NCBI GenBank assembly: GCA_944391335.1
Contig: CALXTF010000004.1
Span: 16,412 to 80,411, forward strand
Source: an uncultured Alphaproteobacteria bacterium
GTDB lineage: Bacteria > Pseudomonadota > Alphaproteobacteria > RF32 > CAG-239
DNA: 64,000 bases
Reading direction: 5' to 3'
Below the pieces are notes generated by a model. It ran no database searches. It was not told the origin of the DNA and saw only the letters and a list, made by a program, of their open reading frames with translations. Numbering within the stretch: position 1 is the stretch's first letter; every line of letters starts with the position of its first letter. Positions 41,213-64,000 of this stretch are shown piece by piece. The position numbers were made by a program, and so were the translations under genes.

Positions 41213-42028
41213 TTATAATTCTTTGTTTTTAATATCTTTTAACCATTGATTAATAAAAGCATTTTCTTTAGATAAAGATTCAAGAGAAGGTTCGCTTGGA
41301 CTATGCTTCTCAAAAACATCTTCCTCTTGAGTTATTGTTTTTAAGGCTTCTTGAGATATTTTTAATAGTTGTTCATCACTTAATTGATGAACAGAAGAAC
41401 TGTTGTATTTAAGAATGATGCCTTTATTAAGATCCTTTTCACAAATAGATTCTTTTAGCCATTTCGGATATTGATAAAAAAAACGAAAACTTTTATCATC
41501 CATTAAAAAAGTGAGATCAAAAGGTTTCTTACCGGAATTATTAAAAATAGCAACGACATCGCTTCTTTTAAGGATTTGAGGAAATTTCTTTAAAATTTGA
41601 GGATAACACCTGACAATATCCGCATAAGGTATATTATGTCCGCCATTTAACACGCGTTGTTGTACGCGAAGATAAGATAACAGATGATTGGAAAGACCGA
41701 TAAATATTGTTGCGATTTTAAAACCTTTTTTACGAGCTGCATCCATAAAATGTAAATGAGTATTGCCTGCGGAAATCGTTTCATATGAAAAACTTTGTTG
41801 ATTTTCAATACAATCTTGAGCTATCTTACAAGTCATTACACCTGCGTTATAAAGATTAGTAAGTTGATCCTTTTTAGGATTAAAAGTTTCTTTAATCATA
41901 TTATCTAAATTAACAAATGGCGCATTTTTCATGAGAGGATCCTTTTTTATGACCAAGTCATAAAAAGTTGATTTACCTGCTCCATTAGGACCAGCAATCA
42001 TAATCATCCATGGCGTTCTCTTTTTCAT
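41213..42028 (-). CDS. Zeta-toxin-like P-loop ATPase/kinase (COG4185-type)
   Basis: IAGPNGAGKST Walker A, FVNLD, SFSYETISAG and RVQQRVLNGGHNIPYADIVRCY follow the zeta/COG4185 pattern. There is an extra C-terminal region of about 80 aa. Confidence 0.65.
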   Translation of the reverse strand: MKKRTPWMIMIAGPNGAGKSTFYDLVIKKDPLMKNAPFVNLDNMIKETFNPKKDQLTNLYNAGVMTCKIAQDCIENQQSFSYETISAGNTHLHFMDAARKKGFKIATIFIGLSNHLLSYLRVQQRVLNGGHNIPYADIVRCYPQILKKFPQILKRSDVVAIFNNSGKKPFDLTFLMDDKSFRFFYQYPKWLKESICEKDLNKGIILKYNSSSVHQLSDEQLLKISQEALKTITQEEDVFEKHSPSEPSLESLSKENAFINQWLKDIKNKEL

Positions 42029-48516: not shown

Positions 48517-48591
48517 TGGGGTGTCGCCAAGAGGTAAGGCAACGGTTTTTGGTATCGTCATTCGTTGGTTCGAATCCAGCCACCCCAGCCA
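48517..48591 (+). tRNA. tRNA-Gln (anticodon UUG), copy 1
   Basis: The 75-nt cloverleaf was folded by hand: acceptor TGGGGTG/CACCCCA, anticodon stem ACGGT/ATCGT, loop TTTTGGT, T-arm GTTGG-TTCGAAT-CCAGC, encoded CCA. It is close to E. coli tRNA-Gln. Confidence 0.9.
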
Positions 48592-48699: not shown

Positions 48700-48737
48700 T
48701 AATGTCAAATTTTAGCCTATTTTATGAGGTGAATTTG

Positions 48738-50510
48738 ATGCTTTTTAAACGTAACTCCATTTATTATGCCGTTATAAATATTCCTAAATCACTGGTTCCT
48801 ATCTACCACCGCAAGCAAATCTGGCAATCATTACATACCAAAGACCGACGAATTGCCTCACTTCGGGTTGAACTTGAAACAATGGCGATACGACAACGAA
48901 TATTAAATGACTTGGAAAACCTTAAACATATCCAAAAAACTACTACCCCAAAAACACCACCTAAACCAGAGCCACCTATTATTTGCCGAGAAGTTGAATA
49001 TACCGAAGAAGAAGCCGAATTACACGCTTATGACTGGTTGACGCAAAAGTCCCATACTGAAAGCAGAAGGTTATTAAATGGCGCAAATCGAATGGAAGAA
49101 CGCAAATATTTTCAAAATCTCCTTTCTGCTTATGAATACAAATATCTCCAACGCAACTACCAAGACATATATGCAGAAACCAATAATTACTTCCAAGAAA
49201 AACAACTTGCGACACCTACCAAAACTTGCGCCGAGATGATATTTAATGCTTTTATGAGGGCAAAAATTCAGCTTTTACGGTATCTGATTGAGTTTTTGAA
49301 TGGCTATTGTGGTGAAATTGATGCCAGCCTTATTGACCGTATGTATTTTAAGCAACTGGATATATCAGCCGAACTCAAACAAAAGAAACAACACAAACCC
49401 GATATGTCTTTGATGCAAGTTGTTAAACATTATAATCAGACTGTATCACGCAACAAAACATCTGACGCAACTAAGGAACGTGTGGCATCAAAAATGGAAT
49501 TGATTGCTGAAATAATCGGGAAAACCAAACCTATGCGACAAATTTCCGCTGATGACTTAAACGACGTGATACAAAATATTCCATATATACCGAAACGTTT
49601 TGGTGAAGGTGTAACCAAAGGAAAAACCATCATCCAAGCAATCAATATGGCAAAACATAACAAAGCCCCTACTCTTTCCGAAAAAACACAAACTGATTAC
49701 ATTCACACATTAAGCTCAATATTTAAATGGGCAAAACAAAAGAAATTTATTGAAGAAAACCCAATGGAAGAAGTGGAAATCCCCTCAATTACCATCAATA
49801 AAAACCAAGACAAATACCTCCCATTTTCGATTAACCAGCTCAATATTATATTTCACTCGACGGTCTATCGTGGATGTTTAAATAATCGTATTGGTCGTTT
49901 CAAAGCTGGTGACAAGATTTATCGTGATGGCTTTTACTGGGTGCCTTTAATCGCCTTATTTTCTGGTATGAGACTTAATGAAATTTGCCAACTCACCACC
50001 GTAGATATTATTACTAAAGATGACGTTGTTTGTTTCAGTATTAACGATAAAAACGGAAAAAAAGTCAAAACCGCCAATGCCATTAGAATTATACCAATAC
50101 ACCCGATGTTAATAAAATGTGGCTTTCTGCAATATGTGGAACAACAAAAAAATAACGTTACCAACAAAACCCTGCGCATATTCCCCGAACTTGTGCCGAA
50201 TTGCCGTGGTGAATTATCAGCCAGCGTATCAAAGTTTTTTAATCGATTATTGGATAAACTTAATGAAACGATTGATAATGATGACGATAAATTTTTGCCT
50301 AAACACGTAGCGCACTCATTCAGACACACTTTTCGCAGTGAACTCCGTAACCATCAAGTTCCGCAGGAAAGAGTTGTTATTTTAGGTGGTTGGGATCAAG
50401 GTTCAAGTTTGGCATCACATTATGGGAGTATATCTGCCAAAGAACTCTATAAAACCGTTTCCGAAAATTTAACCTTTGATGGTTTAGATTTAAGTCATCT
50501 TTATGTATGA
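48738..50510 (+). CDS. int: Tyrosine recombinase / phage-type integrase
   Basis: Catalytic signature SGMRLNE (Arg), HSFRHTFRS (H-x-x-R), LGGW, SHYGS (Tyr). Start set at the ATG behind GAGGTG; the track start at 48702 is possible. Confidence 0.85.
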   Translation: MLFKRNSIYYAVINIPKSLVPIYHRKQIWQSLHTKDRRIASLRVELETMAIRQRILNDLENLKHIQKTTTPKTPPKPEPPIICREVEYTEEEAELHAYDWLTQKSHTESRRLLNGANRMEERKYFQNLLSAYEYKYLQRNYQDIYAETNNYFQEKQLATPTKTCAEMIFNAFMRAKIQLLRYLIEFLNGYCGEIDASLIDRMYFKQLDISAELKQKKQHKPDMSLMQVVKHYNQTVSRNKTSDATKERVASKMELIAEIIGKTKPMRQISADDLNDVIQNIPYIPKRFGEGVTKGKTIIQAINMAKHNKAPTLSEKTQTDYIHTLSSIFKWAKQKKFIEENPMEEVEIPSITINKNQDKYLPFSINQLNIIFHSTVYRGCLNNRIGRFKAGDKIYRDGFYWVPLIALFSGMRLNEICQLTTVDIITKDDVVCFSINDKNGKKVKTANAIRIIPIHPMLIKCGFLQYVEQQKNNVTNKTLRIFPELVPNCRGELSASVSKFFNRLLDKLNETIDNDDDKFLPKHVAHSFRHTFRSELRNHQVPQERVVILGGWDQGSSLASHYGSISAKELYKTVSENLTFDGLDLSHLYV

Positions 50511-50523
50511 TGGAGTAGTTAAG

Positions 50524-51456
50524 ATGCTTGATATAAAAACACCATATTTTAATAGACGTATTCGCCTTTCTAAAAAATCAATAAATGATGCAAAAGAAAA
50601 TATTATATTCCACCTACTCCCTTATATCGTTGCTAGAGAAAGACCTGAAAAACGTGAAGACCTTTCTTATTTTGAAAAAGAAGTAAAACAATGTAAAGCA
50701 ATGATTTCTTTTACTTTGATGGATGGTATTTTATTTAATAATGTTCCGAATACAGAAAAACGTCTTCAATTTAAAATCAAAGCTCTCAAAGGTGGGCAAT
50801 TGAAACAAGATTATTTTGACTTATACAAAATCGAATACAATCACTACATTAATAATAACGGCGACGATACTATTATAAATGGTTTAAGTTATAAAGATAT
50901 ACAAGACCGTATTCGTGAAGATGCTCTTTCTTTAATGATAATGTACTTTTTTGTTTTCAACTTATTACGCCTAGCTCAATATGGCAAAGATGATGACTAT
51001 AGAATAGACAACGCTCGCCGTTTAACGAATAGTATATCTTTTACTATTAATGAAGATGGTAGTCCTATCAAAGTATTTAGCTATGATAAAATTGAAAAAG
51101 CTCGCTCCAGATATATAAAAGCTGCAGCCATTGTCTTTGGTTATATACATACACTATTTAAATATGACAAATTACAATTTACCCACCTTGATTTTAACAA
51201 TGAGGACAATCTCAAGCAAATTAAATCTGCTCTATCTAAATTAGATGATACAGAAATTTATGAAAAATACGACGATATAATGGGCTACATCTTATATGCA
51301 CAAAAGATTCTAACTACAAAGGTATGTAAACACGCTGACAAAAATGAAGATTGGTTCGTTATAAATAAAAGCGATATACGTCGCTATGGGTTTACCGAGT
51401 CGAAGCCGATTCTACCCGATTTTTCCGAATCTGAACGAAAAATCATCAAAAAATAG
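50524..51456 (+). CDS. Hypothetical island protein
   Basis: About 310 aa with no recognisable motif. Start set at the ATG behind GGAG; the track start at 50503 overlaps int. Confidence 0.4.
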   Translation: MLDIKTPYFNRRIRLSKKSINDAKENIIFHLLPYIVARERPEKREDLSYFEKEVKQCKAMISFTLMDGILFNNVPNTEKRLQFKIKALKGGQLKQDYFDLYKIEYNHYINNNGDDTIINGLSYKDIQDRIREDALSLMIMYFFVFNLLRLAQYGKDDDYRIDNARRLTNSISFTINEDGSPIKVFSYDKIEKARSRYIKAAAIVFGYIHTLFKYDKLQFTHLDFNNEDNLKQIKSALSKLDDTEIYEKYDDIMGYILYAQKILTTKVCKHADKNEDWFVINKSDIRRYGFTESKPILPDFSESERKIIKK

Positions 51457-51822
51457 CATTAAATTTCCGATTTTTCACCTCAAAAATTTTTAAAATTTCG
51501 ACCTTTTTTGCCTTTTCAAACTCTTAATAGAATTACTATAATGAGTTATGGATTTTTTTATCAAAATTAACACTATTTTTTTAAATTAAATTTTTGCAAA
51601 CATCTATATTTTACTGCATTATATAAATAACATAAAATAACTTTTCTATAATATGTTAAAATTCAAGAAAAACCGCTGTTTTGTTGTTATTTTCAGCATT
51701 TTATGCTATAGTTAAACTGTTCTTAACGAACAAGTCTCGCACGTATTCTTATTAATAATATAGAGACGTCTGAACAGCTTATTCGTTGAGGTTTGTTTCA
51801 ACTCATAAAATGGAGAATTACC

Positions 51823-52575
51823 ATGGCAAAAGTAAATAAAAAGGTGTCGAAGTCCACCTATAAAAAAACTTCAAAAAGAACAGTTAATGGCGCTCGTCGT
51901 CATAATACTAAGGCAACTTCTGCTACTCGTAAAAGAGAAACAGAAAGCCAACGTCTTGAAAAGACTATGGATAAGATTGCTGCATCTTCCCAGTTTAAGA
52001 AAGCTCAAAAACTTCTTGAACAGATTGGAACGTGCATCTCTCAAACCAGAGAAGCAAGATATAATTTTATGGCTACGATTTATTGCCATATTGGTGATAC
52101 TTTTGGAAATGATGACTTTGAGAAAGGTGCTAAAAAGTATCTTTTGCGTCTTTTCCCTGTATCTGAAGACGAAGACCAGAAGAAACTACACCAGAGTTTC
52201 CGCAACAAATACAATCGTGCTTTAAGATTTTTACGAGATAAAAAAGTTTCTTATGCTGATGTTGACAAAGTCGTGAAGATAATTGGAAAAATCGGTCTCC
52301 AAGCCCTCTTTAATGGTAAAGAAAATGATACTGGTAAGAAGTCTTCTTCCAAAGCAACATTAAAGGACAATGTCCAGAATTTGATGAAGAAGAATGATGC
52401 CGTTAAAATCATTCAGCAGGTTTTGAGTATTCAAGCCGATGAAAAAATCAAAGGTGATTTTGTTCTTTGTTATGCTGATGGGAGACTTTCTTATTCAACA
52501 AAGTCTAAATGGGCAAATAAGTTGGCAAATGGCGATAATTCGTTAGAAGAATTGCCAACTGCCAATGACAAATAA
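51823..52575 (+). CDS. Hypothetical island protein with a Lys/Arg-rich N-terminus
   Basis: Start at MAKVNKK behind GGAGA. The first 45 residues or so are strongly basic, suggesting possible nucleic-acid binding. Confidence 0.45.
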   Translation: MAKVNKKVSKSTYKKTSKRTVNGARRHNTKATSATRKRETESQRLEKTMDKIAASSQFKKAQKLLEQIGTCISQTREARYNFMATIYCHIGDTFGNDDFEKGAKKYLLRLFPVSEDEDQKKLHQSFRNKYNRALRFLRDKKVSYADVDKVVKIIGKIGLQALFNGKENDTGKKSSSKATLKDNVQNLMKKNDAVKIIQQVLSIQADEKIKGDFVLCYADGRLSYSTKSKWANKLANGDNSLEELPTANDK

Positions 52576-52641: not shown

Positions 52642-54783
52642 ATGACATTACGCACGATTAAATCCACCAAATTTATGTCTGGCGCAGAAATTGCCGAAGA
52701 AAGTGATGCTCGCCTTGATAGCTTAAATAATGAAATTCGCATAACAAAAGATAACACGCACAAACAAAAGCTGATTAATTTAAGAAACCGATTGCAGCAT
52801 CATTCATCAGAAACGTTTGCCAATATCATTTACGCATCGCAACAACAAGAAATAAAATACGTTGAAATTAAGCATCTGATTGACAATTACAAGCTCTTAG
52901 CCGAAAGCAAAAAACTTAATCCAGATGATGTTTATTTCATAACCATTAACTGCTGCGAAGGTCATATCAATAAAAAGCCCTATTTTGTTGCGCCTAAAGA
53001 TTTAGCTAACTTCAACGTCAAGACTTCTAAAAATACTATTATTAAACAACTACGTGGATTAGGAACAGCTTTCGGTTATGTGGCATTTGAGGTAAAATAT
53101 GATATACGCATGGGAGCATTTTTGCCCCATTTTCATATTTTAATTTGTGGCATTAGTAAAAAGAACATAGAAGACTATTTCACTTGTTTATACCCTCTCG
53201 AATATCAATTTAAATTAAATCGAGATACTTTTATTGTGTCAAAGAAGAATGATCCACTCATTTATGAAAGACCGCAAAAACTAAAGGTAGTTGATATTGA
53301 GACCGTTAAAGATTCTGAAAAAGTAGCTAGTTATATGTGCAAATTCAAGACATATATGACAAACTATCAACAACAAGATTTAACAGCTTTACCATATTCT
53401 GAAAAGCGCCAAGATTACCACACAAGACCAGAAGATAAAATTCATAATTACCATTTATTGTTTTTGGATAAGTTGTCATTTGGTGAACAGGTGTTTTGTT
53501 TCAATAAGGGTTTACTGACGAACTTCATCAACAACAAAGCCGATAAAATGGCTCAAAACTGCATAAGAATAGCTAAAAGAGGCAAAAAAACGGGGAAATT
53601 GGGTAAAAAAGCCCCAAACCACAACACATACGCCAAGCCTATATCAACTAATAAGATTGTGTTACAATTTTTAAAGTATGATTCTTATAAACCAAAACAA
53701 GAAAAAATCATTGATTATATTAAAGACCATAAATCTTGTATTGTTATTCAACCTACTAATTTTGGTAAGAGTTTATGTTATTATGCATCAGCTTTACAAT
53801 TAAAAGGGTTATGTGTAGTTATAGAGCCTTTAGTATCTTTAATTTATGACCAAGTATCTAAACTTAATAAGATACATAAAAAGTTAGCTCTTGCATTTAC
53901 TGGTGAAACTAAACATAGAGATAAAAAATTAAAGAGATTAAAAAGAGGTATATATAAGTTTTTATATATAGCTCCTGAAATGTTAAAAAATATAGAGTTA
54001 AAAAAGGTATTGTCTAAATTAGATATTTGTATGATAGCCATTGATGAAGCGCATTGTATTGATGTATGGGGTGAAGATTTTAGACCTGATTATCAAGAGC
54101 CATTAAATAAACTTATAAAGAAATACCCAGATGCAAAAGTTATGGCATTGACGGCTACTGCAGGCGACATCACACAAAACGTTATTAAAAAAGTGTGCAA
54201 TATGCCTAAAAAAGCCAAAGTATTTAAAGGCAACTTAAACAGACCGAATATTAAGTATAGCGTAGTTAAAAAAGAATATGATGGATTACAACAGTTATTA
54301 GATACACTCAAACCATACCTTGATAAAGATAATAAACCGACAACTTCGATTATTATATATTGTGCTCATATTGATTATACTTTAGGACTTCAAGATATAT
54401 TAAAAGAGCGTGGTATTAATAGCTATGTATTTAATGGAAAGAGTGATAATAAAAAAGAAATACTCAAAAAATTTAAAAAGGAAAAATGTATTGTTCTAGC
54501 AACCAGTGCTTTCGGTATGGGGATTGATAAACCAGATGTACACTTAGTTATTCACTTTGAGGGTACGTATAATCTTGAAATGTATTATCAAGAATCTGGT
54601 CGGGTTGGTCGTGATGGTGAAAATTCTAAAGCTGTATTGTTTTATTCTGATATAGATATTGAAAGAATGACATATTTTGCCAAGAATGATACAATGAAAG
54701 AAAAGTTAAAGCTGGCTATTAAATATATGCAGATGACAAACAATAAAAAACGTCGTGAATTTTTATTAAATAGTATTGTCTAG
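52642..54783 (+). CDS. Fusion protein: N-terminal HUH-type rolling-circle Rep-like domain plus C-terminal RecQ-family SF2 helicase
   Basis: The N-terminus has YFITIN (motif I-like), LPHFHILICG (HUH) and KVASYMCKFK (Y-x-x-K). The C-terminus has PTNFGKSLCY, VVIEPLVSLIYDQV, DEAHCIDVWGEDFRPDY, ALTATA, SAFGMGIDKPDVHLVIH and YYQESGRVGRDG, all RecQ motifs. Confidence 0.8.
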   Translation: MTLRTIKSTKFMSGAEIAEESDARLDSLNNEIRITKDNTHKQKLINLRNRLQHHSSETFANIIYASQQQEIKYVEIKHLIDNYKLLAESKKLNPDDVYFITINCCEGHINKKPYFVAPKDLANFNVKTSKNTIIKQLRGLGTAFGYVAFEVKYDIRMGAFLPHFHILICGISKKNIEDYFTCLYPLEYQFKLNRDTFIVSKKNDPLIYERPQKLKVVDIETVKDSEKVASYMCKFKTYMTNYQQQDLTALPYSEKRQDYHTRPEDKIHNYHLLFLDKLSFGEQVFCFNKGLLTNFINNKADKMAQNCIRIAKRGKKTGKLGKKAPNHNTYAKPISTNKIVLQFLKYDSYKPKQEKIIDYIKDHKSCIVIQPTNFGKSLCYYASALQLKGLCVVIEPLVSLIYDQVSKLNKIHKKLALAFTGETKHRDKKLKRLKRGIYKFLYIAPEMLKNIELKKVLSKLDICMIAIDEAHCIDVWGEDFRPDYQEPLNKLIKKYPDAKVMALTATAGDITQNVIKKVCNMPKKAKVFKGNLNRPNIKYSVVKKEYDGLQQLLDTLKPYLDKDNKPTTSIIIYCAHIDYTLGLQDILKERGINSYVFNGKSDNKKEILKKFKKEKCIVLATSAFGMGIDKPDVHLVIHFEGTYNLEMYYQESGRVGRDGENSKAVLFYSDIDIERMTYFAKNDTMKEKLKLAIKYMQMTNNKKRREFLLNSIV

Positions 54784-54833: not shown

Positions 54834-54865
54834 TCGGTATGGGCGTAGTGTTCATACCGATTTTT
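54834..54865 (+). terminator. Rho-independent terminator of the Rep-helicase gene
   Basis: TCGGTATG / CATACCGA stem with an 11-nt loop, followed by TTTTT. Confidence 0.6.
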
Positions 54866-55406
54866 ATATATAATTATAAACCGTTCTTCTTGAAACATTA
54901 TATTGTTTAGCGATGGTGGTTATTGGAGTGCGTTTATTTACAAGCTCTTTTATCTCTGCAACTTGTTCGTTGGTTAGTTTATGTTGTCCACCTTTATATT
55001 TACCTTTAAGTTTAGCCAAAGCAATTCCTTCTCGTTGTCGTTCTAAAATTAAATTTCGTTCAAGCTCTGCCACAGCACCAAGCATTGTCATCATCATTTT
55101 TTGATATGGGTCTTGTTTATCAGGGGCAAATATCAAGTTTTCCTTGTGAAATATAATTTTTGCCCCTTTATTGGTTATTTCCTCAACCAAATTCAGCAAG
55201 TCTTTGGTGTTGCGAGCGAGCCTATCCATAGAATGCACATTAACCACGTCACCAGCACGGATATTGAGTAACATCGCTTGAAGTTCGGGACGGTTGGTGT
55301 TTTTACCACTGATTTTTTCGACATACTCCCTATCGCAAGCAACATTTAATAGTTGGCGTTCGGTATTCTGGTCGGTAGTGGAAACTCTCTTGTAATTAAA
55401 AATCAT
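54864..55406 (-). CDS. Serine recombinase (resolvase/invertase family)
   Basis: YKRVSTTDQNTERQ catalytic-serine block, the small (180 aa) form, and a C-terminal HTH IAKQYNVSRRTVYNYI. Confidence 0.85.
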   Translation of the reverse strand: MIFNYKRVSTTDQNTERQLLNVACDREYVEKISGKNTNRPELQAMLLNIRAGDVVNVHSMDRLARNTKDLLNLVEEITNKGAKIIFHKENLIFAPDKQDPYQKMMMTMLGAVAELERNLILERQREGIALAKLKGKYKGGQHKLTNEQVAEIKELVNKRTPITTIAKQYNVSRRTVYNYI

Positions 55407-55464: not shown

Positions 55465-56037
55465 TTAATCGGGCTTTCGATTTAGTTTGCACACTTTTGA
55501 GGCTGTGTTATCGAGGTATACCTTGTTTATACAGTAGATATTCCTTGTCATTAGTTGATATTTTTTCTCTCCTTTCTTATGGGATATACTATTCATATTG
55601 ATACTAGGCATGCCATCGCTATCGAAAAACCTTAGCTTGTTATTGGATAGACCTTTATAAACTGAGTAATGATCCCACTCCTTACACTTAACTCTTACTA
55701 TTAAAGAATTATCAAATTTGAGTTGCTCCATTTGATTAACTATCTCATCAAAACTCAGCTTGTTATTATAAAATGGGCGCATAAATTTTATTTGAGGCTG
55801 TTTCGTTGTTTTTAGATAATCGTTTATAAAAGTCAGTATTTGCTCCAATCTCTTATAATCAGCTCCATTCTCGGCAACATCAAAAAATGAGCTATAACAC
55901 TCTAACTGGTCGATAACATAGTCATATAAGGCTTGAGCTTTCTTTTGTGGTAAATCATATCCAAGCATAACTAACGAGTTAATTCCCGAATATACACTAC
56001 AAAAACGGTCTAATGCTCCTTGCTTAAAAGGTTTCAT
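55465..56037 (-). CDS. Hypothetical protein with possible papain-like Cys/His peptidase fold
   Basis: QGALDRFCSVYSGIN (Q...C) and WDHYSVY (H) are spaced like C39-type peptidases; this is a tentative call. The start ATG lies 1 nt after the upstream stop (TAATATG). Confidence 0.35.
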   Translation of the reverse strand: MKPFKQGALDRFCSVYSGINSLVMLGYDLPQKKAQALYDYVIDQLECYSSFFDVAENGADYKRLEQILTFINDYLKTTKQPQIKFMRPFYNNKLSFDEIVNQMEQLKFDNSLIVRVKCKEWDHYSVYKGLSNNKLRFFDSDGMPSINMNSISHKKGEKKYQLMTRNIYCINKVYLDNTASKVCKLNRKPD

Positions 56038-56038
56038 A

Positions 56039-56362
56039 TTAATACTCACTCGCAAACATAACTGTTAAAACCCTATTAGTTACTTCTTCTAACTCTGGAT
56101 TGGGCGAGTAGTATTCGTAATTCAAATCATACATATCAATCTTCCAGAAAATTTGTTGCTCGTGATAATCAAAACAGCCAAAATCATGTTCGCCATAAGG
56201 GTCATTGTCTTCGGTAAAGATATTAAATGTTTTTACTTTATTTATAATCTCTTGTTGCTGTTCGGTTGGTAGGCTAGCAATCCCACTTGTTAAAATAACT
56301 TTGCCACTGATTAGAGTAGTCCTAAATTTATCATTTAATTCAGCAATGCGTTTTGTATTCAT
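56039..56362 (-). CDS. DUF3768-family protein
   Basis: NDPYGEHDFG...IFWKIDMYD...NRVLTVMFASEY matches my recollection of the conserved DUF3768 blocks common on plasmids and ICEs. Confidence 0.6.
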   Translation of the reverse strand: MNTKRIAELNDKFRTTLISGKVILTSGIASLPTEQQQEIINKVKTFNIFTEDNDPYGEHDFGCFDYHEQQIFWKIDMYDLNYEYYSPNPELEEVTNRVLTVMFASEY

Positions 56363-57186: not shown

Positions 57187-57906
57187 ATGATTAATACGTT
57201 AGAAGAATTTATTGCCTGTTATAAAGAAATTAAACAGCAAGGATGGATTAGAACACATAGAAGTGGTCCTACTGGAATCGGTAAAACATTGGAAGATTTA
57301 CTAGGAATTCCAGAAAATAATCTACATGAACCTGACTTTGGTGATTATGAACTTAAATCGTGTCGAATAGGTTCTAATAGTATGCTAACATTATTTACCC
57401 AGACACCTCAACCGCCAAGAGCTAATTCTTATCTGCGTGAAAAGTATGGTTATTCCAGTGACGCTTATGATAATGATGAAAAAGTTTTACATGCTACATT
57501 AACTGCATCAAGGTACACTTCAATTGCAAACACTAGTAAATCATTAAAAATTACGTGTTCATCTGATAAAATTTTTATAAGCTCAAATACAGAAGATGAA
57601 GATGTATATTGGAATAAAAATGAACTAGAAAAAAGTTTTAATAAAAAATATAAAAACAAATTTGTATATGCAAAAGCTTTATGTCGTGGAACAAGAGATA
57701 GTGAAGAATTTCTTTTCACGGAAGCTTATGAAGTTTCTGGATTCTCATATGATTCATTTATACGGCTTTTAGAAGAAGGTAAAATATATGTAGATTTACG
57801 TATAGGGCAATATCCTGATGGAAGAACTCATGACCATGGGACAGGATTCCGTATTAGAGAAGAAGACCAAAACCTTCTTTTTACAATAAACAGAAAAATT
57901 GTATAA
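57187..57906 (+). CDS. Type II restriction endonuclease, MvaI/BcnI family (MutH-like PD-ExK)
   Basis: 239 aa. GPTGIGKTLEDLLGI, EPDFGDYELKS (PD...ExK), LTLFTQTP and GRTHDHGTGFRI are collinear with my recollection of the R.MvaI/R.BcnI blocks. The size matches those monomeric enzymes. Confidence 0.8.
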   Translation: MINTLEEFIACYKEIKQQGWIRTHRSGPTGIGKTLEDLLGIPENNLHEPDFGDYELKSCRIGSNSMLTLFTQTPQPPRANSYLREKYGYSSDAYDNDEKVLHATLTASRYTSIANTSKSLKITCSSDKIFISSNTEDEDVYWNKNELEKSFNKKYKNKFVYAKALCRGTRDSEEFLFTEAYEVSGFSYDSFIRLLEEGKIYVDLRIGQYPDGRTHDHGTGFRIREEDQNLLFTINRKIV

Positions 57907-60099
57907 TTAACTGATTTTCTTCAATACAACGATATGCTCATTTGTCATTGTTGCAACTTTCTCACCACTTATATTTGTTGGAGAGTTTAGAGAAGGCATA
58001 ACTTTATTTGATATATTTCTATCAATAGTATAAATATGTTTAAGCCCATAATTTTGAGCCAATTCCGAAATAATTTTATCAGTTTGCAGATAAATATTTT
58101 TAACCGTTCTATTACCAACCACCCAGAATTGATATCCTGCTTTTTTGGTTTTTTGGGCTATCGTACGTATGGATTCATCTAACTCTTTGTAAAAACTAAA
58201 AACATCACCAGACCTTTCTATATCTATATCTTTTATTCTTTCTAATGCCTTTCTTAAAGTCTCACTATGTAATGAATATTCAAAGCCATTTCTGTATTTT
58301 TTTCCACCCATTAAAGATTTATCTATGCTCATTATTTCTTGGTTAGTTAAATTATCAATATTAAGCCATTGTAAAGACAAACGACTATATTCACCATATG
58401 CTACCGTAGTCCTGCTGTCACCATAAGGCGGAGACGTTATAATTAAATCATATTCATTATCTTCCACATCAGTTAATGTTATGGCATTATTATTCAAAAT
58501 AGATACCAGTGGTTTTGTATCTATTGTATTTAAAATTTCTCCAAATTCATTCATTTTTTCAATATTGCGTGTCAATATATCTTCAAAAATTTTTATTACA
58601 TTTGGTGAAAAGGCGTCTAATTTATTTTTGGGAAGACGAAACATTTTAAATTCACCATTTCTGCGGTTAGAAACGTACCTAATTGTCTCACTCATCGCAA
58701 TATAACAAAAATCACGAATATAGATATTTTTAATTTCAGCAATACAATTTTTAATTAATTGCAGCAATAATATCACATTTGGTTTAAACCAATACCCTAA
58801 ATTTTTAAATGATGGCAATGAGAAGTCCTTATTTTTTAATCTACAATATTTTTCTAAATACAAATGAGCGTTTTCACCCCATCCATCTTTGGCCGATATA
58901 TCAAGTTTTTCTTGTTCAATTATATATGCATTTACAGAATCATAGAAGTCCTTATCGTTATTATAATTTTCTTTGATTCTATGCATTAGCAAAATTGTTT
59001 CTTGCTGTAATAAATTAATATCTATATTGGTTGTCTTAACTTTCGACAAATACAAAGCCAAAGGATTAATATCGCAACCTGTAACTTTATTAATACCTGC
59101 TAATAATCCTTCAACAAGTACTGTTCCTGAACCAACAAAAGGATCTAACAATGAATTGATATTTTTTACTTTTTTCACCAATCTAATTATATTTTTACTA
59201 ATAGGTGCGACCATAACTGCTGGATAAGAATGTAGTCCATGTGTATATTCGTGTACATCATTTCCTTTAAAATCCCAAAATCTCTCTGGTAACTCTTTTA
59301 ATCTCTTAACTAAATTTTCCTCTTCTTCGGTATGATTCTCAAATAAATCCATTTGTTGCTCATCTTCTATAGAATTTGATATTTTATCATTTATACCTTT
59401 ATGGGTCTTTACTTCTACTGTGCAAATAGTATCATTATGCCAACCACCATGTGGAACCATTAAAATTCGCTCTATTTCAAAACCGTATTTATATCCAATA
59501 CCTCCACTATTCCATCCGAAAGTGATTACTTTTCCTCCAATCTTAACAATACGTGAAATTTCTTTTTTATGATTTCCCCAAAAAGATGCTTTAGTTGTAT
59601 CCCATGTTACATTGTAACCAACATCATTATAGCACTCACTAACTTGTCTTGGGGAATATGGTGGGTCATATAAAACACCATCAATACTATCGTCTTCAAA
59701 AATTTTTAAGAAATCAAGTGCATCCAAATGATAATCTGTATCGTATTTTTCATTTAAATCATTCGTAATATTAGCAAATTTGTTCTTATTGGCAAATGGG
59801 TCGATCCATGTACCTTGTGTCATTTCATCTTGTATTAAGGATGCAATAGGTTTGATGTCAAAAGTATTTTTGTTCGGCATAGCCCATACTCTTTCAATAA
59901 TGACATCTTTATTGTTATTTGGAATAATCGAATTTATTTTCTTTCTAGCATCATTCGGTTTAGAAGCATTCAACGGAATACACCATACATTACCTATACG
60001 TTCAACTCCATCTATTCTATTTTGTGTGCATAATGCCTGCACTCGTCTTGCAGTCATATTCCACTTCGTTGCAGCTTCTTTAACACTTAAATATTTCAT
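57907..60099 (-). CDS. HTH + two DNA methyltransferase domains in one polypeptide
   Basis: N-terminal excisionase/MerR-like HTH (LSVKEAATKWNMTARRVQAL...WCIP). Domain 1 has WIDPFANKNK ... VLYDPPYSPRQ. Domain 2 has HSYPAVMVAPI, LLDPFVGSGTVLVEG ... IITSPPYGDSR. Start at the ATG behind GAGAGG (60099). Confidence 0.8.
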   Translation of the reverse strand: MKYLSVKEAATKWNMTARRVQALCTQNRIDGVERIGNVWCIPLNASKPNDARKKINSIIPNNNKDVIIERVWAMPNKNTFDIKPIASLIQDEMTQGTWIDPFANKNKFANITNDLNEKYDTDYHLDALDFLKIFEDDSIDGVLYDPPYSPRQVSECYNDVGYNVTWDTTKASFWGNHKKEISRIVKIGGKVITFGWNSGGIGYKYGFEIERILMVPHGGWHNDTICTVEVKTHKGINDKISNSIEDEQQMDLFENHTEEEENLVKRLKELPERFWDFKGNDVHEYTHGLHSYPAVMVAPISKNIIRLVKKVKNINSLLDPFVGSGTVLVEGLLAGINKVTGCDINPLALYLSKVKTTNIDINLLQQETILLMHRIKENYNNDKDFYDSVNAYIIEQEKLDISAKDGWGENAHLYLEKYCRLKNKDFSLPSFKNLGYWFKPNVILLLQLIKNCIAEIKNIYIRDFCYIAMSETIRYVSNRRNGEFKMFRLPKNKLDAFSPNVIKIFEDILTRNIEKMNEFGEILNTIDTKPLVSILNNNAITLTDVEDNEYDLIITSPPYGDSRTTVAYGEYSRLSLQWLNIDNLTNQEIMSIDKSLMGGKKYRNGFEYSLHSETLRKALERIKDIDIERSGDVFSFYKELDESIRTIAQKTKKAGYQFWVVGNRTVKNIYLQTDKIISELAQNYGLKHIYTIDRNISNKVMPSLNSPTNISGEKVATMTNEHIVVLKKIS

Positions 60100-60192
60100 A
60101 TTATTACCTCTCACATTTGTTTTATACGCAAAAACGAACAAATGCAAGGCAAAAATATTTTTAATAACAAAACATTTGGTATGTATTATTTA

Positions 60193-61971
60193 TTAACCAT
60201 TAAAAAATTGTTCATATAAGTCTCTTCCCATTTGGGCATAATGACTGGCTTTATAATTCAAAAAATTAAATTTAGAAACATCTTGAAGTTTTTCTTTATA
60301 ATAAGTGACATTTCCTGTTTTTTTATTTATAATTAAATTTCTCAAACAGTTAATAATCCCATTAATAAATGTAACATTTAACACGTTATTTGTATTTTTT
60401 CTTCTAAATTTCCATTGATCTTGCCCTATAGCTTCCTTAAAAGCTATAAATAAGAACCTTAATTGTTCCGCACAAAAATCTCTATATTCATTTAAGATAT
60501 CATATTCTTCACTTGTATATACTTCTTTATTTTCTTTACTTGCTATTTTTAATCTTTCCTTATTTGTGTTACCCCATAAAGAATATAAACTATCATCCCC
60601 TTCTAGCTTGACTAAAGGTTTTAATCCATAACTGATAATGGAAGCCGTTTTAATTTTTTCCTTTTCAAATGCCAGTGTTTCAAATTTATCGCAGAGAGGG
60701 CCAGATTCATTCAATTTCAATAAAATTTTTCTGGCAATTGCAACTGTCGAAAATGGCTTTTGAACTTCTTCTATTATCTGCAACAATTCAGAACTAACTT
60801 TCTTCTGATTAGAATTAATTTCTTTAAAAATCGTTGCTTCAAATTTTAAACAATCTTGTTTTGGTAAGTTGCGAGGAAATAAAATTGCTGTAACTAAAAG
60901 ATTTTGTTTTACTCTCAACTTTGCAATTTTTTCCTCATAAGTATCTGTTCCTTCATGATATGTATAAACTCTATGCTGACCATCTATAATGCCAATAATA
61001 TTTGCATGATCTTTAATCTCTACGGAAATTGGATCAGTTTTTATTGTTCTGCTTGAACCATCAGCTTGGAACTCACCATTATCATCTATTATTATTTTTT
61101 CCGATTTTTCGTTATATAATGTAATTTCATCTATAGGAATCGTAACTATAATATTGTTTATGAATACTCTATCATTATCATATAAAAATTTACGCATTGA
61201 TTTTATCTTAGATGGATTTAACATTCTCTGATAAAAAACTACATCGTCATCATCATTCCAACCATCTTTTCTCAAGACTTGCGCTCGTCTTAACAAGGAA
61301 GCTGCATCGATGTAAAAAGATATTATTTTAAAACCATTATTAAATGAAGAATGATGTTCTGGTAAAATGTTTCCTTTAAAACTATTTGTAGACAATGACG
61401 TTGATTGCAAAACTTTTACTCCTATACAGTCATCATCTATATTCAAAAATTTAAAAAATTCAGACTTTGCTGATCTTTTAATTACTGAAACTATTTTCTT
61501 AAAATATAACAAAGTCGGATATTCTATGTATGTAACATTAGAAACGACTTCTTTATGTTCATTAGCTATTTTTTGTTTAGAAATATAGACTATTCTCACT
61601 TGTGCTTGATCTAATGAATACATATTATCAAAACGATCCCGCATAAAATCCCTAAATCCTGAAAATTTCTCATGATTTTTTAAGAATTCTATAAATTTTT
61701 TAGGATTTTCGTTTATTTTACTATATATCACATTTTTTTTAAGCAAATGAGTAGATGTGTCCCCTACAGTATCTTCTATCAGTAAAATTACATTTTCATA
61801 AACATAAATTGCATCTAATTCACTTGTCCTACTTTCATACTCAAATTCTGTTCCGTTAATACGAGGAACTGAAGAAAAACCCATATTTATCAGAAAGTCT
61901 CGTATCTCTTTTCTGAATGCCCTCTGTTCTTTTTCTTGATCGGTTAATTTTCTCTTTCTTTTCTTTACCAT
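60193..61971 (-). CDS. DGQHR-domain protein (DndB-like, ParB/Srx superfamily) with an extra N-terminal domain
   Basis: Literal motif IIGIIDGQHRVYTYHEG in the middle of a 592-aa protein. The first 200 aa or so are unassigned. Start ATG lies 1 nt after the upstream MTase stop (TAATATG) with AAGGA as RBS; the track start at 61998 is less likely. Confidence 0.75.
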   Translation of the reverse strand: MVKKRKRKLTDQEKEQRAFRKEIRDFLINMGFSSVPRINGTEFEYESRTSELDAIYVYENVILLIEDTVGDTSTHLLKKNVIYSKINENPKKFIEFLKNHEKFSGFRDFMRDRFDNMYSLDQAQVRIVYISKQKIANEHKEVVSNVTYIEYPTLLYFKKIVSVIKRSAKSEFFKFLNIDDDCIGVKVLQSTSLSTNSFKGNILPEHHSSFNNGFKIISFYIDAASLLRRAQVLRKDGWNDDDDVVFYQRMLNPSKIKSMRKFLYDNDRVFINNIIVTIPIDEITLYNEKSEKIIIDDNGEFQADGSSRTIKTDPISVEIKDHANIIGIIDGQHRVYTYHEGTDTYEEKIAKLRVKQNLLVTAILFPRNLPKQDCLKFEATIFKEINSNQKKVSSELLQIIEEVQKPFSTVAIARKILLKLNESGPLCDKFETLAFEKEKIKTASIISYGLKPLVKLEGDDSLYSLWGNTNKERLKIASKENKEVYTSEEYDILNEYRDFCAEQLRFLFIAFKEAIGQDQWKFRRKNTNNVLNVTFINGIINCLRNLIINKKTGNVTYYKEKLQDVSKFNFLNYKASHYAQMGRDLYEQFFNG

Positions 61972-61972
61972 A

Positions 61973-63250
61973 TTAAAGTTCCTTGTATTCATTTTCATCT
62001 ATATCTAATTTAATAGGACTTAAAATCACCTCTTTTTCATTAATTCGATCATCTAAATTGATACCCCTAATAAATTTATGCGTTATCTTATTTGAATAGG
62101 AATACAATTTTTCTTTAGGGCTTATTAATTTATCAATTTTATCTACATAAGAAAAAAGAGCGTCAATGCCAAATTTAGACAACGGAGCTTTAGAAATTAG
62201 TGCATTAATTATTTTTTCTATCTTTTCTTTTTCTTTTAATGTAGATAATAATATTGTGTACTTGTAGCAATCAACACTGTTTTTCTTTAAACATTTTTCT
62301 GATGATTTTTCAACTTTTATCTTTTGTACAATCCTTACATCTTGATCATCTATCTTTTTTAACAATATTCTTGCATATTTAAGAGCTCTCAATTGCAAAA
62401 TTATTTTTTCAAAATCCATTTGATTGACCAAATACTTTTTCTCTTTTTCATATTCCGATTGCTTCTCTGTATTCGTATTTTTTATATAATTTTTAAACAT
62501 CGAAATATATTCAGAATTTAGCTCCGTTCCTATATATCTTCTATTCATATTTAAGGCTTTAGCTAAAACAGTTCCGCTTCCACTAAAAGGATCTAAAACA
62601 ACATCATTTTCTTCTGTTGATAACGTCAATATCCTCGCAACAAGATCTTCTGGGAGTGGGCAAAAATGGCGTATATAACCTTTTCCCCAAGAACCTTGAG
62701 TTGGTATTGGATAATGCCAAATACCATCGGGAGTTTTTCCTTTAGGGTTATAACGCTCTGGATATCTTATCCACCAAGATTTAAGTACTTCATAATCTCT
62801 GATTTTATCAATGAAAAACTTGTAATCGTCTGTTTTAGAAAACATCAAAATATACTCAAAAGAATTTCGCATCTGCCCTTTATGCGTCCATGGAACTGTT
62901 TTATCTTTTTCCCATATAATGATTTCTCGGAATATCCATCCAGCTTCTCTTATTTTATTTGCTATATCGAAAGGCAATGCAACAATTTCACCATCTTTTC
63001 TCAACGCATCAACTATAACCCATAAACTTCCTGTAGATTTTGTACATGCATAAACACTCTTAAAAACTGTACCAATATCGTTTAGATATTCTTTATAAGA
63101 CTGACCAAAACCTATTTGTTCTTTGTAGCCATAATCCTTCATATCAAAATATGGAGGAGATGTTACAGTAACATCCACTATTGGCTCTTTTATTAGTTTA
63201 TCAATCTTACGAGCGTCGTATTTATGTATATTACACAGCTTATCGTTCAT
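61973..63250 (-). CDS. Beta-class N4/N6 DNA methyltransferase with an unassigned C-terminal extension of about 170 aa
   Basis: Motif IV VTVTSPPYFD near the N-terminus, followed later by motif I VVLDPFSGSGTVLAKA (IV-then-I order, the beta class). Confidence 0.85.
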   Translation of the reverse strand: MNDKLCNIHKYDARKIDKLIKEPIVDVTVTSPPYFDMKDYGYKEQIGFGQSYKEYLNDIGTVFKSVYACTKSTGSLWVIVDALRKDGEIVALPFDIANKIREAGWIFREIIIWEKDKTVPWTHKGQMRNSFEYILMFSKTDDYKFFIDKIRDYEVLKSWWIRYPERYNPKGKTPDGIWHYPIPTQGSWGKGYIRHFCPLPEDLVARILTLSTEENDVVLDPFSGSGTVLAKALNMNRRYIGTELNSEYISMFKNYIKNTNTEKQSEYEKEKKYLVNQMDFEKIILQLRALKYARILLKKIDDQDVRIVQKIKVEKSSEKCLKKNSVDCYKYTILLSTLKEKEKIEKIINALISKAPLSKFGIDALFSYVDKIDKLISPKEKLYSYSNKITHKFIRGINLDDRINEKEVILSPIKLDIDENEYKEL

Positions 63251-63469
63251 ATTCTTTACTTAACATTACTCCAAACTGTTATAATAGTATATTTTATATC
63301 AATTCATAGCAACAAAAATATACTTACTACACCCAATTTATAGCATGCTAACCTATCATACAAAATTTACGACCAGTTTTGCATATAAATTACGACTTCC
63401 ACACTCAAAACCGATTAAATTGAAGATAAACCGCATACTATTATCTCTTAGAAGCAAAATGATAGTTGC

Positions 63470-63508
63470 AAAAATGAAACTATTATCGCCAAAAAATGAA
63501 ACTATTAT
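63470..63508 (+). repeat. Two perfect 17-nt direct repeats AAAAATGAAACTATTAT with a 22-bp period (iteron-like)
   Basis: Copies at 63470..63486 and 63492..63508. A further ACTATTAT lies about 35 nt upstream. Confidence 0.8.
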
Positions 63509-63570
63509 TTTTAGAACCACCGCAAACTAAAATATATCAACATTAATTCCCTTGCATTTTTTCGTCATAC

Positions 63571-63705
63571 AATGCGGTGGTGCTGTTTTGTGCATCATTT
63601 ATCGTGAAAAATCAATTTTCACACTCAAAACTCAGGAAAACGAAGGCAAACGATATATGAAACTTAATACAAAACGCACACCGACGACATTCAGACCACC
63701 GCATT
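63571..63705. repeat. 11-bp inverted repeat AATGCGGTGGT / ACCACCGCATT, plus a third ACCACCGCA copy at 63516
   Basis: Arms at 63571..63581 and 63695..63705. A direct copy of the 9-mer core is at 63516..63524. Confidence 0.75.
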
Positions 63706-63826
63706 AATTTTTGTAAATTTGAATTAACAAAATCCACGGAAATGAAGTTTTTGTAAAATAGAATTTACACTTTTAGCAAATAAAATTCCACAAAGCCTAA
63801 AAATGACCTATTGACAAGGAGTTAGC

Positions 63827-63873
63827 TGCTAATATATGGTGATGGAAAGTGCTAATGTTAACTGCTAATATTT
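63827..63873 (+). repeat. Three TGCTAAT boxes just upstream of tRNA-Gln copy 2
   Basis: TGCTAATATAT (63827), TGCTAATGTT (63850) and TGCTAATATTT (63863). The same core occurs twice at 48654/48690 next to int. Confidence 0.7.
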
Positions 63874-63934
63874 GACAGCAAACAGCATATAGCAAGAAGG
63901 TCGCTTAATATTGATAAACGATTGGAAAATTATT

Positions 63935-64000
63935 TGGGGTGTCGCCAAGTGGTAAGGCATCGGCTTTTGGTGCCGACATTCGTTGGTTCGAATCCAGCCA
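63935..64000 (+). tRNA. tRNA-Gln (anticodon UUG), copy 2, truncated by the window edge
   Basis: Same acceptor, T-arm and anticodon loop as copy 1. The anticodon stem is TCGGC/GCCGA and there is one D-loop change. The last 9 nt or so lie beyond position 64000. Confidence 0.9.

Follow-up and report, generated by a model that had tools for sequence, protein, structure and literature searches.

A DGQHR-domain protein with a restriction-endonuclease-like N-terminal domain, paired with a DNA methyltransferase, as the candidate effector of a two-gene restriction-modification-like system

The fusion of ParB-like COG1479/DGQHR domains to HNH, PD-(D/E)xK or HEPN nucleases, in genes linked to restriction-modification (R-M), was noted in 2013 (PMC3632139), and the general theme of ParB-like domains joined to nucleases near methyltransferases is thus already known. 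In SspE and GmrSD, a DUF262 domain senses DNA and switches on the attached nuclease (PMC12065111), and they are viewed as NTPase-gated nucleases (PMC10164549; NTP, nucleoside triphosphate). DpdB is an ATPase of the ParB fold that forms dimers, in which the helical C-terminal domains make a DNA-sized tunnel; its C-terminal domain is homologous to the nuclease domain of SspE, without the catalytic motif (PMC10164549). Here we describe a gene on the minus strand of a 64,000-nt stretch of contig CALXTF010000004.1 (hereafter the window), from an uncultured alphaproteobacterium, which encodes a 592-aa protein with a DGQHR domain and directly follows the gene of a DNA methyltransferase. With a probability that we put at roughly 60 %, the two genes form an R-M-like system protected by methylation, with the methyltransferase gene first and the nuclease gene second, in which this protein acts as the restriction (effector) subunit.

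A scan with one genome per species (185,579 species-representative genomes) found 287 loci of this family, 80 of which we analysed by extracting and clustering the open reading frames (ORFs) that they contain; the neighbour counts refer to 79 loci, 78 of them informative. A methyltransferase gene of the N6_N4 type is linked to the DGQHR gene in every one of the 78 informative loci, and in 71 of the 79 it adjoins the latter upstream and on the same strand, with gaps typically of −43 to +40 nt. Among the other arrangements, the methyltransferase gene is upstream and divergent in L042 and L080, in L005 and L072 the two genes belong to one operon but are separated by extra genes, and it is 4.5 kb off, beside a gene for a BglII-like nuclease, in L045; L040 is cut by the end of its contig. 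The two proteins have also diverged together (Pearson r = 0.70 between the divergence of the methyltransferases and that of the DGQHR proteins), and no third conserved neighbour gene was found in the 79 loci. Such an obligate linkage argues for an R-M-type system protected by methylation, and not for a stand-alone modification-dependent (Type IV) enzyme; GmrSD and BrxU differ from the present pair in precisely this respect, being modification-dependent and having no cognate methyltransferase.

The pattern of gene decay points in the same direction. The DGQHR ORF is broken in four loci (L023:7950-9734, L047:8238-9656, L074:7917-9695 and L001:6687-9742), and in the first three of them the methyltransferase beside it is intact, while in L001, the closest genome match (75 % identity), both genes are split; there is no locus with an intact DGQHR gene and no methyltransferase. 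This one-sided decay, in which R is broken and M is kept, fits the inactivation of a toxic restriction gene. Type II and Type III-like R-M systems are alike in being linked, mobile pairs of a methyltransferase and a PD-(D/E)xK-fold protein, with M first, with translational coupling, and with an R that decays while M is kept. They differ from the pair described here in the nature of R, which is a small nuclease in Type II and a helicase-nuclease (Res) in Type III, whereas here it contains a ParB-type NTPase module, and also in that the R proteins of the present family are unusually conserved across phyla (35-50 % identity).

The partner methyltransferases fall into two length classes, of ~420 and ~315 aa, and an N-terminal SPPY motif IV is present in all 68 that were examined. 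In the window, this motif is translated from 63149-63160, and the ORF translation also contains a motif I, DPFSGSGT. Among β-class amino-methyltransferases, SPP(Y/F) is the signature of N4-cytosine enzymes and (D/N)PP(Y/F) that of N6-adenine enzymes. Judged by its motif, the partner methyltransferase likely makes N4-methylcytosine (m4C), and we predict that it is the protective modification subunit of the system.

The gene of the DGQHR protein belongs to an ORF of 601 aa (60193..61998, minus strand), which is shortened to 592 aa if translation starts at M10 (ATG 61971). We prefer the latter start because both an AAGGA box, which lies 8 nt before this ATG, and the N-termini of the homologues, which agree with the 592-aa form, back M10; the ATG then stands one base past the TAA (61975-61973) of the upstream methyltransferase. 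Residue numbers given here are those of the 592-aa form, except where the 601-aa form is named. An initial annotation of this DNA, made from the letters only, had already proposed the revised 592-aa protein and a literal DGQHR around residue 340; the pentapeptide, encoded at 60970-60984, is found at 330-334 in the 592-aa form and at 339-343 in the 601-aa form, and it belongs to a real domain according to TIGR03187. The remark that the protein is much longer than those of the DndB type is also borne out, since it exceeds the DndB/DpdB-type models (338-381 positions) by ~210 aa.

The N-terminal region begins with a basic stretch, recognised as such in the initial annotation, whose character is kept in the family (mean Lys/Arg fraction 0.44 over 74 relatives) and which is modelled with low confidence and probably forms a flexible, DNA-contacting tail. 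The ~190 aa of the N-terminal region had been left unassigned, rightly so as far as sequence is concerned: residues 1-192 have no match in Pfam, NCBIfam, PHROG, PADLOC or the PDB sequences, by phmmer and hmmsearch against PDB, by a Pfam search at E<=10 on 26 members and with a 26-sequence profile. Only one of the 26 members matched a Pfam family (Card1_endonuc, E 0.041), so that no consistent family emerges, and we consider the PDB sequence matches (Cytokinesis protein 2, adiponectin, Piwi) as noise.

AlphaFold2 models the N-terminal domain alone with a predicted local distance difference test score (pLDDT) of 92.2 and a predicted template-modelling (TM) score of 0.87, and gives it a helix (11-29), four strands (41-45, 48-52, 54-58 and 61-68), a second helix (72-88), further helices and two more strands (124-131 and 146-150). 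The alpha-beta-beta-beta pattern that had been read from the sequence is thus the one that AlphaFold predicts, and the α-β-β-β(-β)-α topology contains the αβββαβ core of the restriction-endonuclease-like fold. Foldseek against PDB recovers mostly PD-(D/E)xK proteins, with TM-scores of 0.30-0.44 and probabilities up to 1.0. The best match is Cdn1 (E 7e-4, probability 1.0). Two restriction enzymes, R.BspD6I, through its small subunit (TM 0.39/0.40), and Nt.BspD6I, are also found, together with the restriction-like endonuclease (RLE) domain of the R2 retrotransposon, Can2, Card1, Bax1 and AF1548, as well as LmuA, HamA, XisH, arenavirus cap-snatching endonucleases and Mus81; of these proteins, Cdn1, Can2, Card1, LmuA and HamA are nucleases of defence. 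The same list of nucleases comes back when the full-length model is used. In BFVD, an independent library, the named matches are again mostly members of the PD-(D/E)XK superfamily (RecB-family, endonuclease I, restriction endonuclease, NERD and DUF2726 proteins), with the RPB5 subunit also among them. The N-terminal region therefore has a nuclease-like fold, and on the strength of the models it is a member of the PD-(D/E)xK superfamily, which we call distant because the TM-scores are modest.

Although the N-terminal domain has a mean pairwise identity of only 39 % across relatives, seven of its residues, D53, N60, E66, T68, H75, K79 and Y129, do not vary in any of 75 full-length relatives, whose identity goes down to 35 %, and position 51 is E or D in all 75; the phage copy discussed below (32 % identity) retains every one of the invariant residues. 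The string ELDAIYVYENVILLIEDT...HLLKK, translated from 61735-61821, covers most of these positions. In the model D53 stands just ahead of strand 54-58, and a tight hairpin (E59-N60) joins the latter to strand 61-68, which bears E66 and T68, so that D53 at the start of β2 and E66-x-T68 in β3 occupy the canonical places of the "PD" and the "(D/E)xK"; H75 and K79 are one helical turn apart on helix 72-88. The initial annotation had suggested a degenerate PD-(D/E)xK core with "E-D-T" instead of E-x-K. The fold, supported by Foldseek in both PDB and BFVD, and the invariance of D53, E66 and T68 support this suggestion, except for D67, which is not conserved (it is mostly Y): only E66 and T68 of the triplet are.

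The position of the lysine of (D/E)xK is thus occupied by an invariant threonine, and K79 and H75 are candidate substitutes. There is a precedent for such a displacement, since in the endonucleases of influenza PA and arenavirus L the catalytic lysine comes from the helix after β3, with comparable spacing: D...E-x-(non-Lys) is followed by a lysine ~13 residues on in the next helix, to be compared with D53...E66-x-T68...K79. The arenavirus enzymes differ in that the structural likeness is only distant (TM ~0.23-0.29) and in having another biology. From topology and conservation, we infer that D53, E66, K79 and H75 may make up the active site.

Beyond approximately residue 200, the protein is, by its sequence, a complete DndB-like module made of a ParB/Srx-fold domain and a helical C-terminal domain, because TIGR04172 aligns with residues 228-581 (601-aa form) over its positions 16-359 of 381. 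The DGQHR domain is, on HMM (hidden Markov model) evidence, genuine, and the pentapeptide did not arise by chance: with 68.8 bits (E 6.1e-19), the match of TIGR03187 ("DGQHR domain") to residues 227-463 in the 601-aa form is above the curated cut-off, 58.85. The motifs that define the domain, QR, DGQHR and FxxxN as listed in PMC4619093, are represented by Q248-R249, DGQHR 330-334 and F382...N386, none of which varies among the 75 relatives. With a mean pairwise identity of 0.55, this domain is also better conserved than any other part of the protein. In relatives (DpdB, SspE and ParB) the DGQQR/DGxxR loop contacts the phosphates of the NTP (PMC10164549), and both ATP and GTP are ligands of a DndB-like protein (PMC12704722). 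The full-length AlphaFold2 model has a pLDDT of 82. The pLDDT is low at 330-336, where the DGQHR loop has no confident placement. Foldseek of the full-length model against PDB gives no match at E<=1e-3; structures of DndB or DpdB are absent from its results, and the ParB N-domain (5k5a) appears only at rank 30; the assignment of the DGQHR domain therefore rests on HMMs and not on structure. The C-terminal domain is all-helical in the model (pLDDT ~85-97) and homologous to that of DndB-type proteins, and no nuclease motif was recognised in it, DUF1524/HNH having no match in the 45 members scanned.

The likeness to DndB and DpdB thus extends to the QR, DGQHR and FxxxN motifs of the ParB-fold domain, to the α-helical C-terminal domain and to the position of the gene beside that of a DNA-modification enzyme. 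These proteins differ from ours in being without the ~190-aa N-terminal nuclease-fold domain, and in their partners, dndCDE or dpdA, where we find a plain S-adenosylmethionine-dependent methyltransferase. We do not consider our protein a DndB, as it scores 24.8 bits with PF14072 (gathering threshold 29.1) and 33.9 with TIGR04172 (cut-off 450), and as its sole conserved neighbour in the 79 loci is the methyltransferase and not dndCDE. Nor is it a DpdB: NF041060 gives 21.4 bits against 300, the DpdB model of PADLOC matches partially, with 21 bits, and there is no TGT-like neighbour. It looks rather as if a DndB/DpdB-type module, with its non-catalytic C-terminal domain, had acquired a nuclease at its opposite terminus.

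The parallel with GmrSD and SspE drawn in the initial annotation is valid as an architectural analogy. In SspE, GmrSD and BrxU, as in our protein, an NTP switch of the ParB superfamily and a DNA nuclease would be combined in one defence polypeptide, and SspE is in addition partnered with a DNA-modification module. The analogy does not extend to membership, however. The nuclease of these proteins is of the HNH type and C-terminal, and their motif is DGQQR, whereas here it is PD-(D/E)xK-like and N-terminal, and the motif is DGQHR; moreover, DUF262 and DUF1524 have no match at E<=1 in 45 members, nor do they in PADLOC.

These data establish the identity of the domains, the class of fold to which the N-terminal domain belongs, the invariance of its residues, the obligate linkage to a methyltransferase and the mobile and defence context described below. 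As for how the pair would work, we suggest that the upstream SPPY-type methyltransferase, probably acting on the N4 of cytosine, marks the DNA of the host; that the DGQHR protein would grip DNA with the basic tail and the DndB-like module together; that the DGQHR loop would bind and hydrolyse NTP and, like its counterparts in ParB, DpdB and SspE, serve as a conformational switch or a gate for dimerisation; and that the N-terminal PD-(D/E)xK-type domain would cleave DNA that is unmethylated, D53 and E66 holding the metal, and K79 and/or H75 standing in for the canonical lysine replaced by Thr68. The nuclease activity, its dependence on NTP, the m4C chemistry and the blocking of cleavage by methylation are all inferred. 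One could go further and see here a distinct class of R-M: where Type I and Type III enzymes have helicase or translocase motors, this one would have a ParB/Srx-fold switch or clamp gated by NTP, and the recognition of unmethylated (m4C-lacking) DNA would be coupled to cleavage by a hitherto unrecognised orphan PD-(D/E)xK variant with the active site D...E-x-T...H-x3-K, the whole being an NTP-dependent, possibly sliding enzyme that is spread across bacteria, archaea and phages. We put this broader proposal forward tentatively, and regard it as doubtful rather than probable.

Several points speak against reading the protein as the nuclease of an R-M-like pair. The structural matches of the N-terminal domain are distant (TM 0.30-0.44, best E 7e-4); the active-site assignment comes from topology and conservation and not from superposition; and Thr68 stands where a lysine is canonical. 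The m4C call depends on the SPPY rule of thumb, and some of the broken ORFs are in metagenome-assembled genomes, where they could be assembly errors. Finally, catalytically dead, DNA-binding N-terminal domains of restriction-endonuclease fold have been documented in NsnA of the Menshen system (PMC12065111), and DndB has been reported to be a transcriptional regulator.

The NsnA precedent leads to what we consider the most serious alternative, although an unlikely one: that the N-terminal domain is a non-catalytic sensor of DNA or of the methyl mark, in the manner of SspE or Menshen, and that the effector is instead the ParB-like domain, which would hydrolyse or deplete NTP or nick DNA in the ParB manner, and would be either licensed by the self mark or aimed at unmarked DNA. 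NsnA-type ParB/DUF262 proteins do have inactive restriction-endonuclease-fold N-terminal domains that are thought merely to bind DNA (PMC12065111), SspE is stimulated by the modification of its host (PMC10164549), and both DNA nicking and NTP hydrolysis are possible for ParB/Srx proteins; the replacement of the canonical lysine by threonine, and the fact that the ParB-like domain is the part of the protein conserved best, would also suit such a sensor. The N-terminal sensor domain of NsnA is polymorphic; where it has a restriction-endonuclease fold, the order of domains is the same as in our protein, with a ParB-type domain and a helical C-terminal domain after it. However, NsnA has lost the acidic residues of the fold, whereas here they are invariant, and one would not expect a domain devoted to binding to retain a pair of acidic residues, a histidine, a lysine and a tyrosine unchanged at canonical catalytic positions down to 32-35 % identity. 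In addition, neither NsnB (ABC ATPase/DUF3696) nor NsnC is found among the conserved neighbours in the 79 loci, and PADLOC has no Menshen match, so that membership in this system is also rejected.

We think it very unlikely that the protein is a DndB-like regulator, that is, an NTP-modulated protein that represses or controls transcription of the methyltransferase operon, comparable to a C-protein and with no nuclease role. DndB has indeed been reported to repress the dnd operon in an ATP-dependent manner, and the DndB-type models cover the C-terminal two-thirds of our protein from one end to the other, but with scores far under the DndB and DpdB equivalog cut-offs. Such a role would leave unexplained a 190-aa nuclease-fold domain with its invariant acidic constellation, and it is hard to see why, in 78 of 78 loci, a solitary methyltransferase should require a regulator as long as 592 aa. 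It also accords poorly with the place of the DGQHR gene, which is downstream of the methyltransferase and translationally coupled to it, and with the broken copies beside intact methyltransferases, which suggest toxicity and not regulation. No more credible is a role as methylation helper, in which a ParB-type NTPase would load or slide the methyltransferase within a modification-only (anti-restriction or epigenetic) module: the base insertion mediated by DpdA does require the ATPase activity of DpdB, ParB-CTPase folds are often fused to phage N6_N4 methyltransferases (PMC12704722) and one copy of our gene is phage-borne, but β-class N6_N4 methyltransferases usually act alone, the conserved nuclease-like N-terminal domain would have no explanation, and the island and defence context, with broken DGQHR genes by intact methyltransferases, suits a toxic gene better.

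The family to which this candidate restriction subunit belongs is widespread. More than 850 homologue clusters (at 90 % identity) match it over its full length, with 46-91 % identity, and the 80 loci come from Bacteroidota, from Alpha-, Beta-, Gamma- and Deltaproteobacteria, Acidobacteriota, Bacilli, Fusobacterium and Patescibacteria, and from one archaeon of the Thermoplasmatota. Common gut Bacteroides are included, and a single cluster has 585 member sequences. A phmmer search with the N-terminal domain against 1.84 billion representatives gave 268 matches, all of them proteins of ~560-610 aa with the domain at their N-terminus, or shorter fragments; no other architecture was found in this set, and the domain is therefore restricted to the present family. 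Its members are annotated as "DGQHR domain-containing protein" or as "hypothetical", no model of PADLOC v2 detects them, and we found no description of the family in the literature searched, in which the papers that mention DGQHR do not cover it. The specific architecture, the orphan PD-(D/E)xK variant and the strict pairing with an SPPY methyltransferase thus appear to be undescribed.

The pair is carried by mobile elements. It occurs on plasmids of Rhizobium and Phyllobacterium, with the annotations "site-specific DNA-methyltransferase" and "DGQHR domain-containing protein". A megablast of the locus of the window against plasmids returned no match. The temperate Akkermansia phage Chantilly (ON453895.1, 32270-35376; our locus L081) encodes a homologue, 32 % identical and annotated "hypothetical protein", whose gene and that of an SPPY methyltransferase are convergent. 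There, the pair is located between the integrase and the repressor, which is the usual (moron) position of genes for lysogenic conversion or superinfection defence.

Some loci may be composite or extended systems. In L005 (4423-10455), the methyltransferase is followed by a GHKL-type ATPase (HATPase_c_3, 549 aa), an unknown protein of 300 aa, the DGQHR protein and an unknown protein of 248 aa, and in L045 (7938-15053) and L072 (2605-9710) the DGQHR gene is found with an SPPY methyltransferase, a BglII-like nuclease, an unknown protein of 426 aa, an SNF2 helicase and a NOV_C-domain protein.

If the 592-aa protein is indeed the nuclease of an unstudied type of R-M, a family present in ~290 of 185,579 species-representative genomes would gain a function, and the principle of the ParB-type NTP switch, known from ParB, SspE, GmrSD/BrxU and DpdB, would extend to ordinary methylation-based restriction. 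The PD-(D/E)xK superfamily would likewise gain a new sequence family with an unusual active-site variant, and the programs that search for defence systems a model that they are missing. Such systems are barriers to the genetic manipulation of gut anaerobes, and could be a source of new NTP-controlled nucleases.

Table 1. Features of the DGQHR gene, of its partner and of the surrounding island (window coordinates; residues of the 592-aa form)
Feature	Position	Strand	Remarks
Coding sequence, 592-aa DGQHR protein	60193..61971	-	stop codon 60193-60195; basis: ORF list, junction sequence, homologues
Alternative upstream ATG	61998	-	601 aa; overlaps methyltransferase gene
Lys/Arg-rich N-terminal tail, residues 1-10 (MVKKRKRKLT)	61942..61971	-	reduced pLDDT
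N-terminal domain without sequence relatives, residues 11-192, PD-(D/E)xK / restriction-endonuclease-like fold	61396..61941	-	AlphaFold2 and Foldseek
Putative active-site segment ELDAIYVYENVILLIEDTVGDTSTHLLKK, residues 51-79 (E51, D53, N60, E66, T68, H75, K79)	61735..61821	-	
DGQHR (ParB/Srx-fold, DndB-like) domain, residues ~197-400	60772..61383	-	TIGR03187; PF14072, DpdB partial
DGQHR pentapeptide, residues 330-334, presumed NTP-phosphate-binding loop	60970..60984	-	translation
C-terminal α-helical domain, residues 401-592	60196..60771	-	TIGR04172 alignment, AlphaFold2
Partner DNA methyltransferase, 425 aa, N6_N4_Mtase, β-class	61973..63250	-	PF01555 E 1.7e-45; PADLOC MTase_II
Integrase (DUF6538 + Phage_integrase)	48702-50510		island start
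713-aa protein: ~340-aa N-terminal region without family + DEAD/Helicase_C (RecQ-like) helicase	52642-54783	+	
Serine resolvase/invertase, 196-aa protein, DUF3768 protein (107 aa)	54864-55406, 55465-56055, 56039-56362	-	
MvaI/BcnI-family restriction endonuclease	57187-57906	+	
746-aa protein, N-terminal helix-turn-helix + two methyltransferase halves (DPPY, SPPY)	57907-60147	-	

In the window, the pair is part of an island of ~15.4 kb bracketed by two copies of tRNA-Gln(ttg), at 48517-48591 and 63935-64000+, which are 91 % identical over 66 nt and have identical 3' halves (the second is complete at L083:2040-2114); the GC skew flips its sign across this region. The gene for the MvaI/BcnI-family enzyme converges on that of the 746-aa methyltransferase and abuts it, the two forming a complete second R-M system. 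We considered whether they could be a third component of the system described here, and rejected this idea, as they make up a separate R-M system that is not conserved near the DGQHR gene elsewhere. An operon of the CBASS defence system (a CD-NTase with CD_NTase_C and a Cap15-type effector; L083:356-1743) is situated just beyond the second tRNA-Gln, past position 64000 of the window, which brings to three the defence systems within ~9 kb of the same contig. No terminator-like hairpin was found in 59900-63934 among the genes of the 425-aa methyltransferase, the DGQHR protein and the 746-aa methyltransferase, and promoter-like sites in this interval are fewer than expected from shuffled sequence. 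The three genes, all on the minus strand, may share a transcript. A controller (C-protein) gene ahead of the 425-aa methyltransferase was also considered and discarded, the ~700-nt upstream region consisting of short, unconvincing ORFs and then tRNA-Gln.

The helicase fusion within the island adjoins two ORFs without family (50503-51456 and 51793-52575) and may constitute a replication or mobilisation module of the island, and the resolvase gene is downstream of an overlapping pair that encodes the DUF3768 protein (107 aa) and the 196-aa protein, the latter having no family match. Outside the island, the chromosomal part of the window carries a gene for a Zeta-toxin/AAA_33-like kinase (41213-42028, minus strand).

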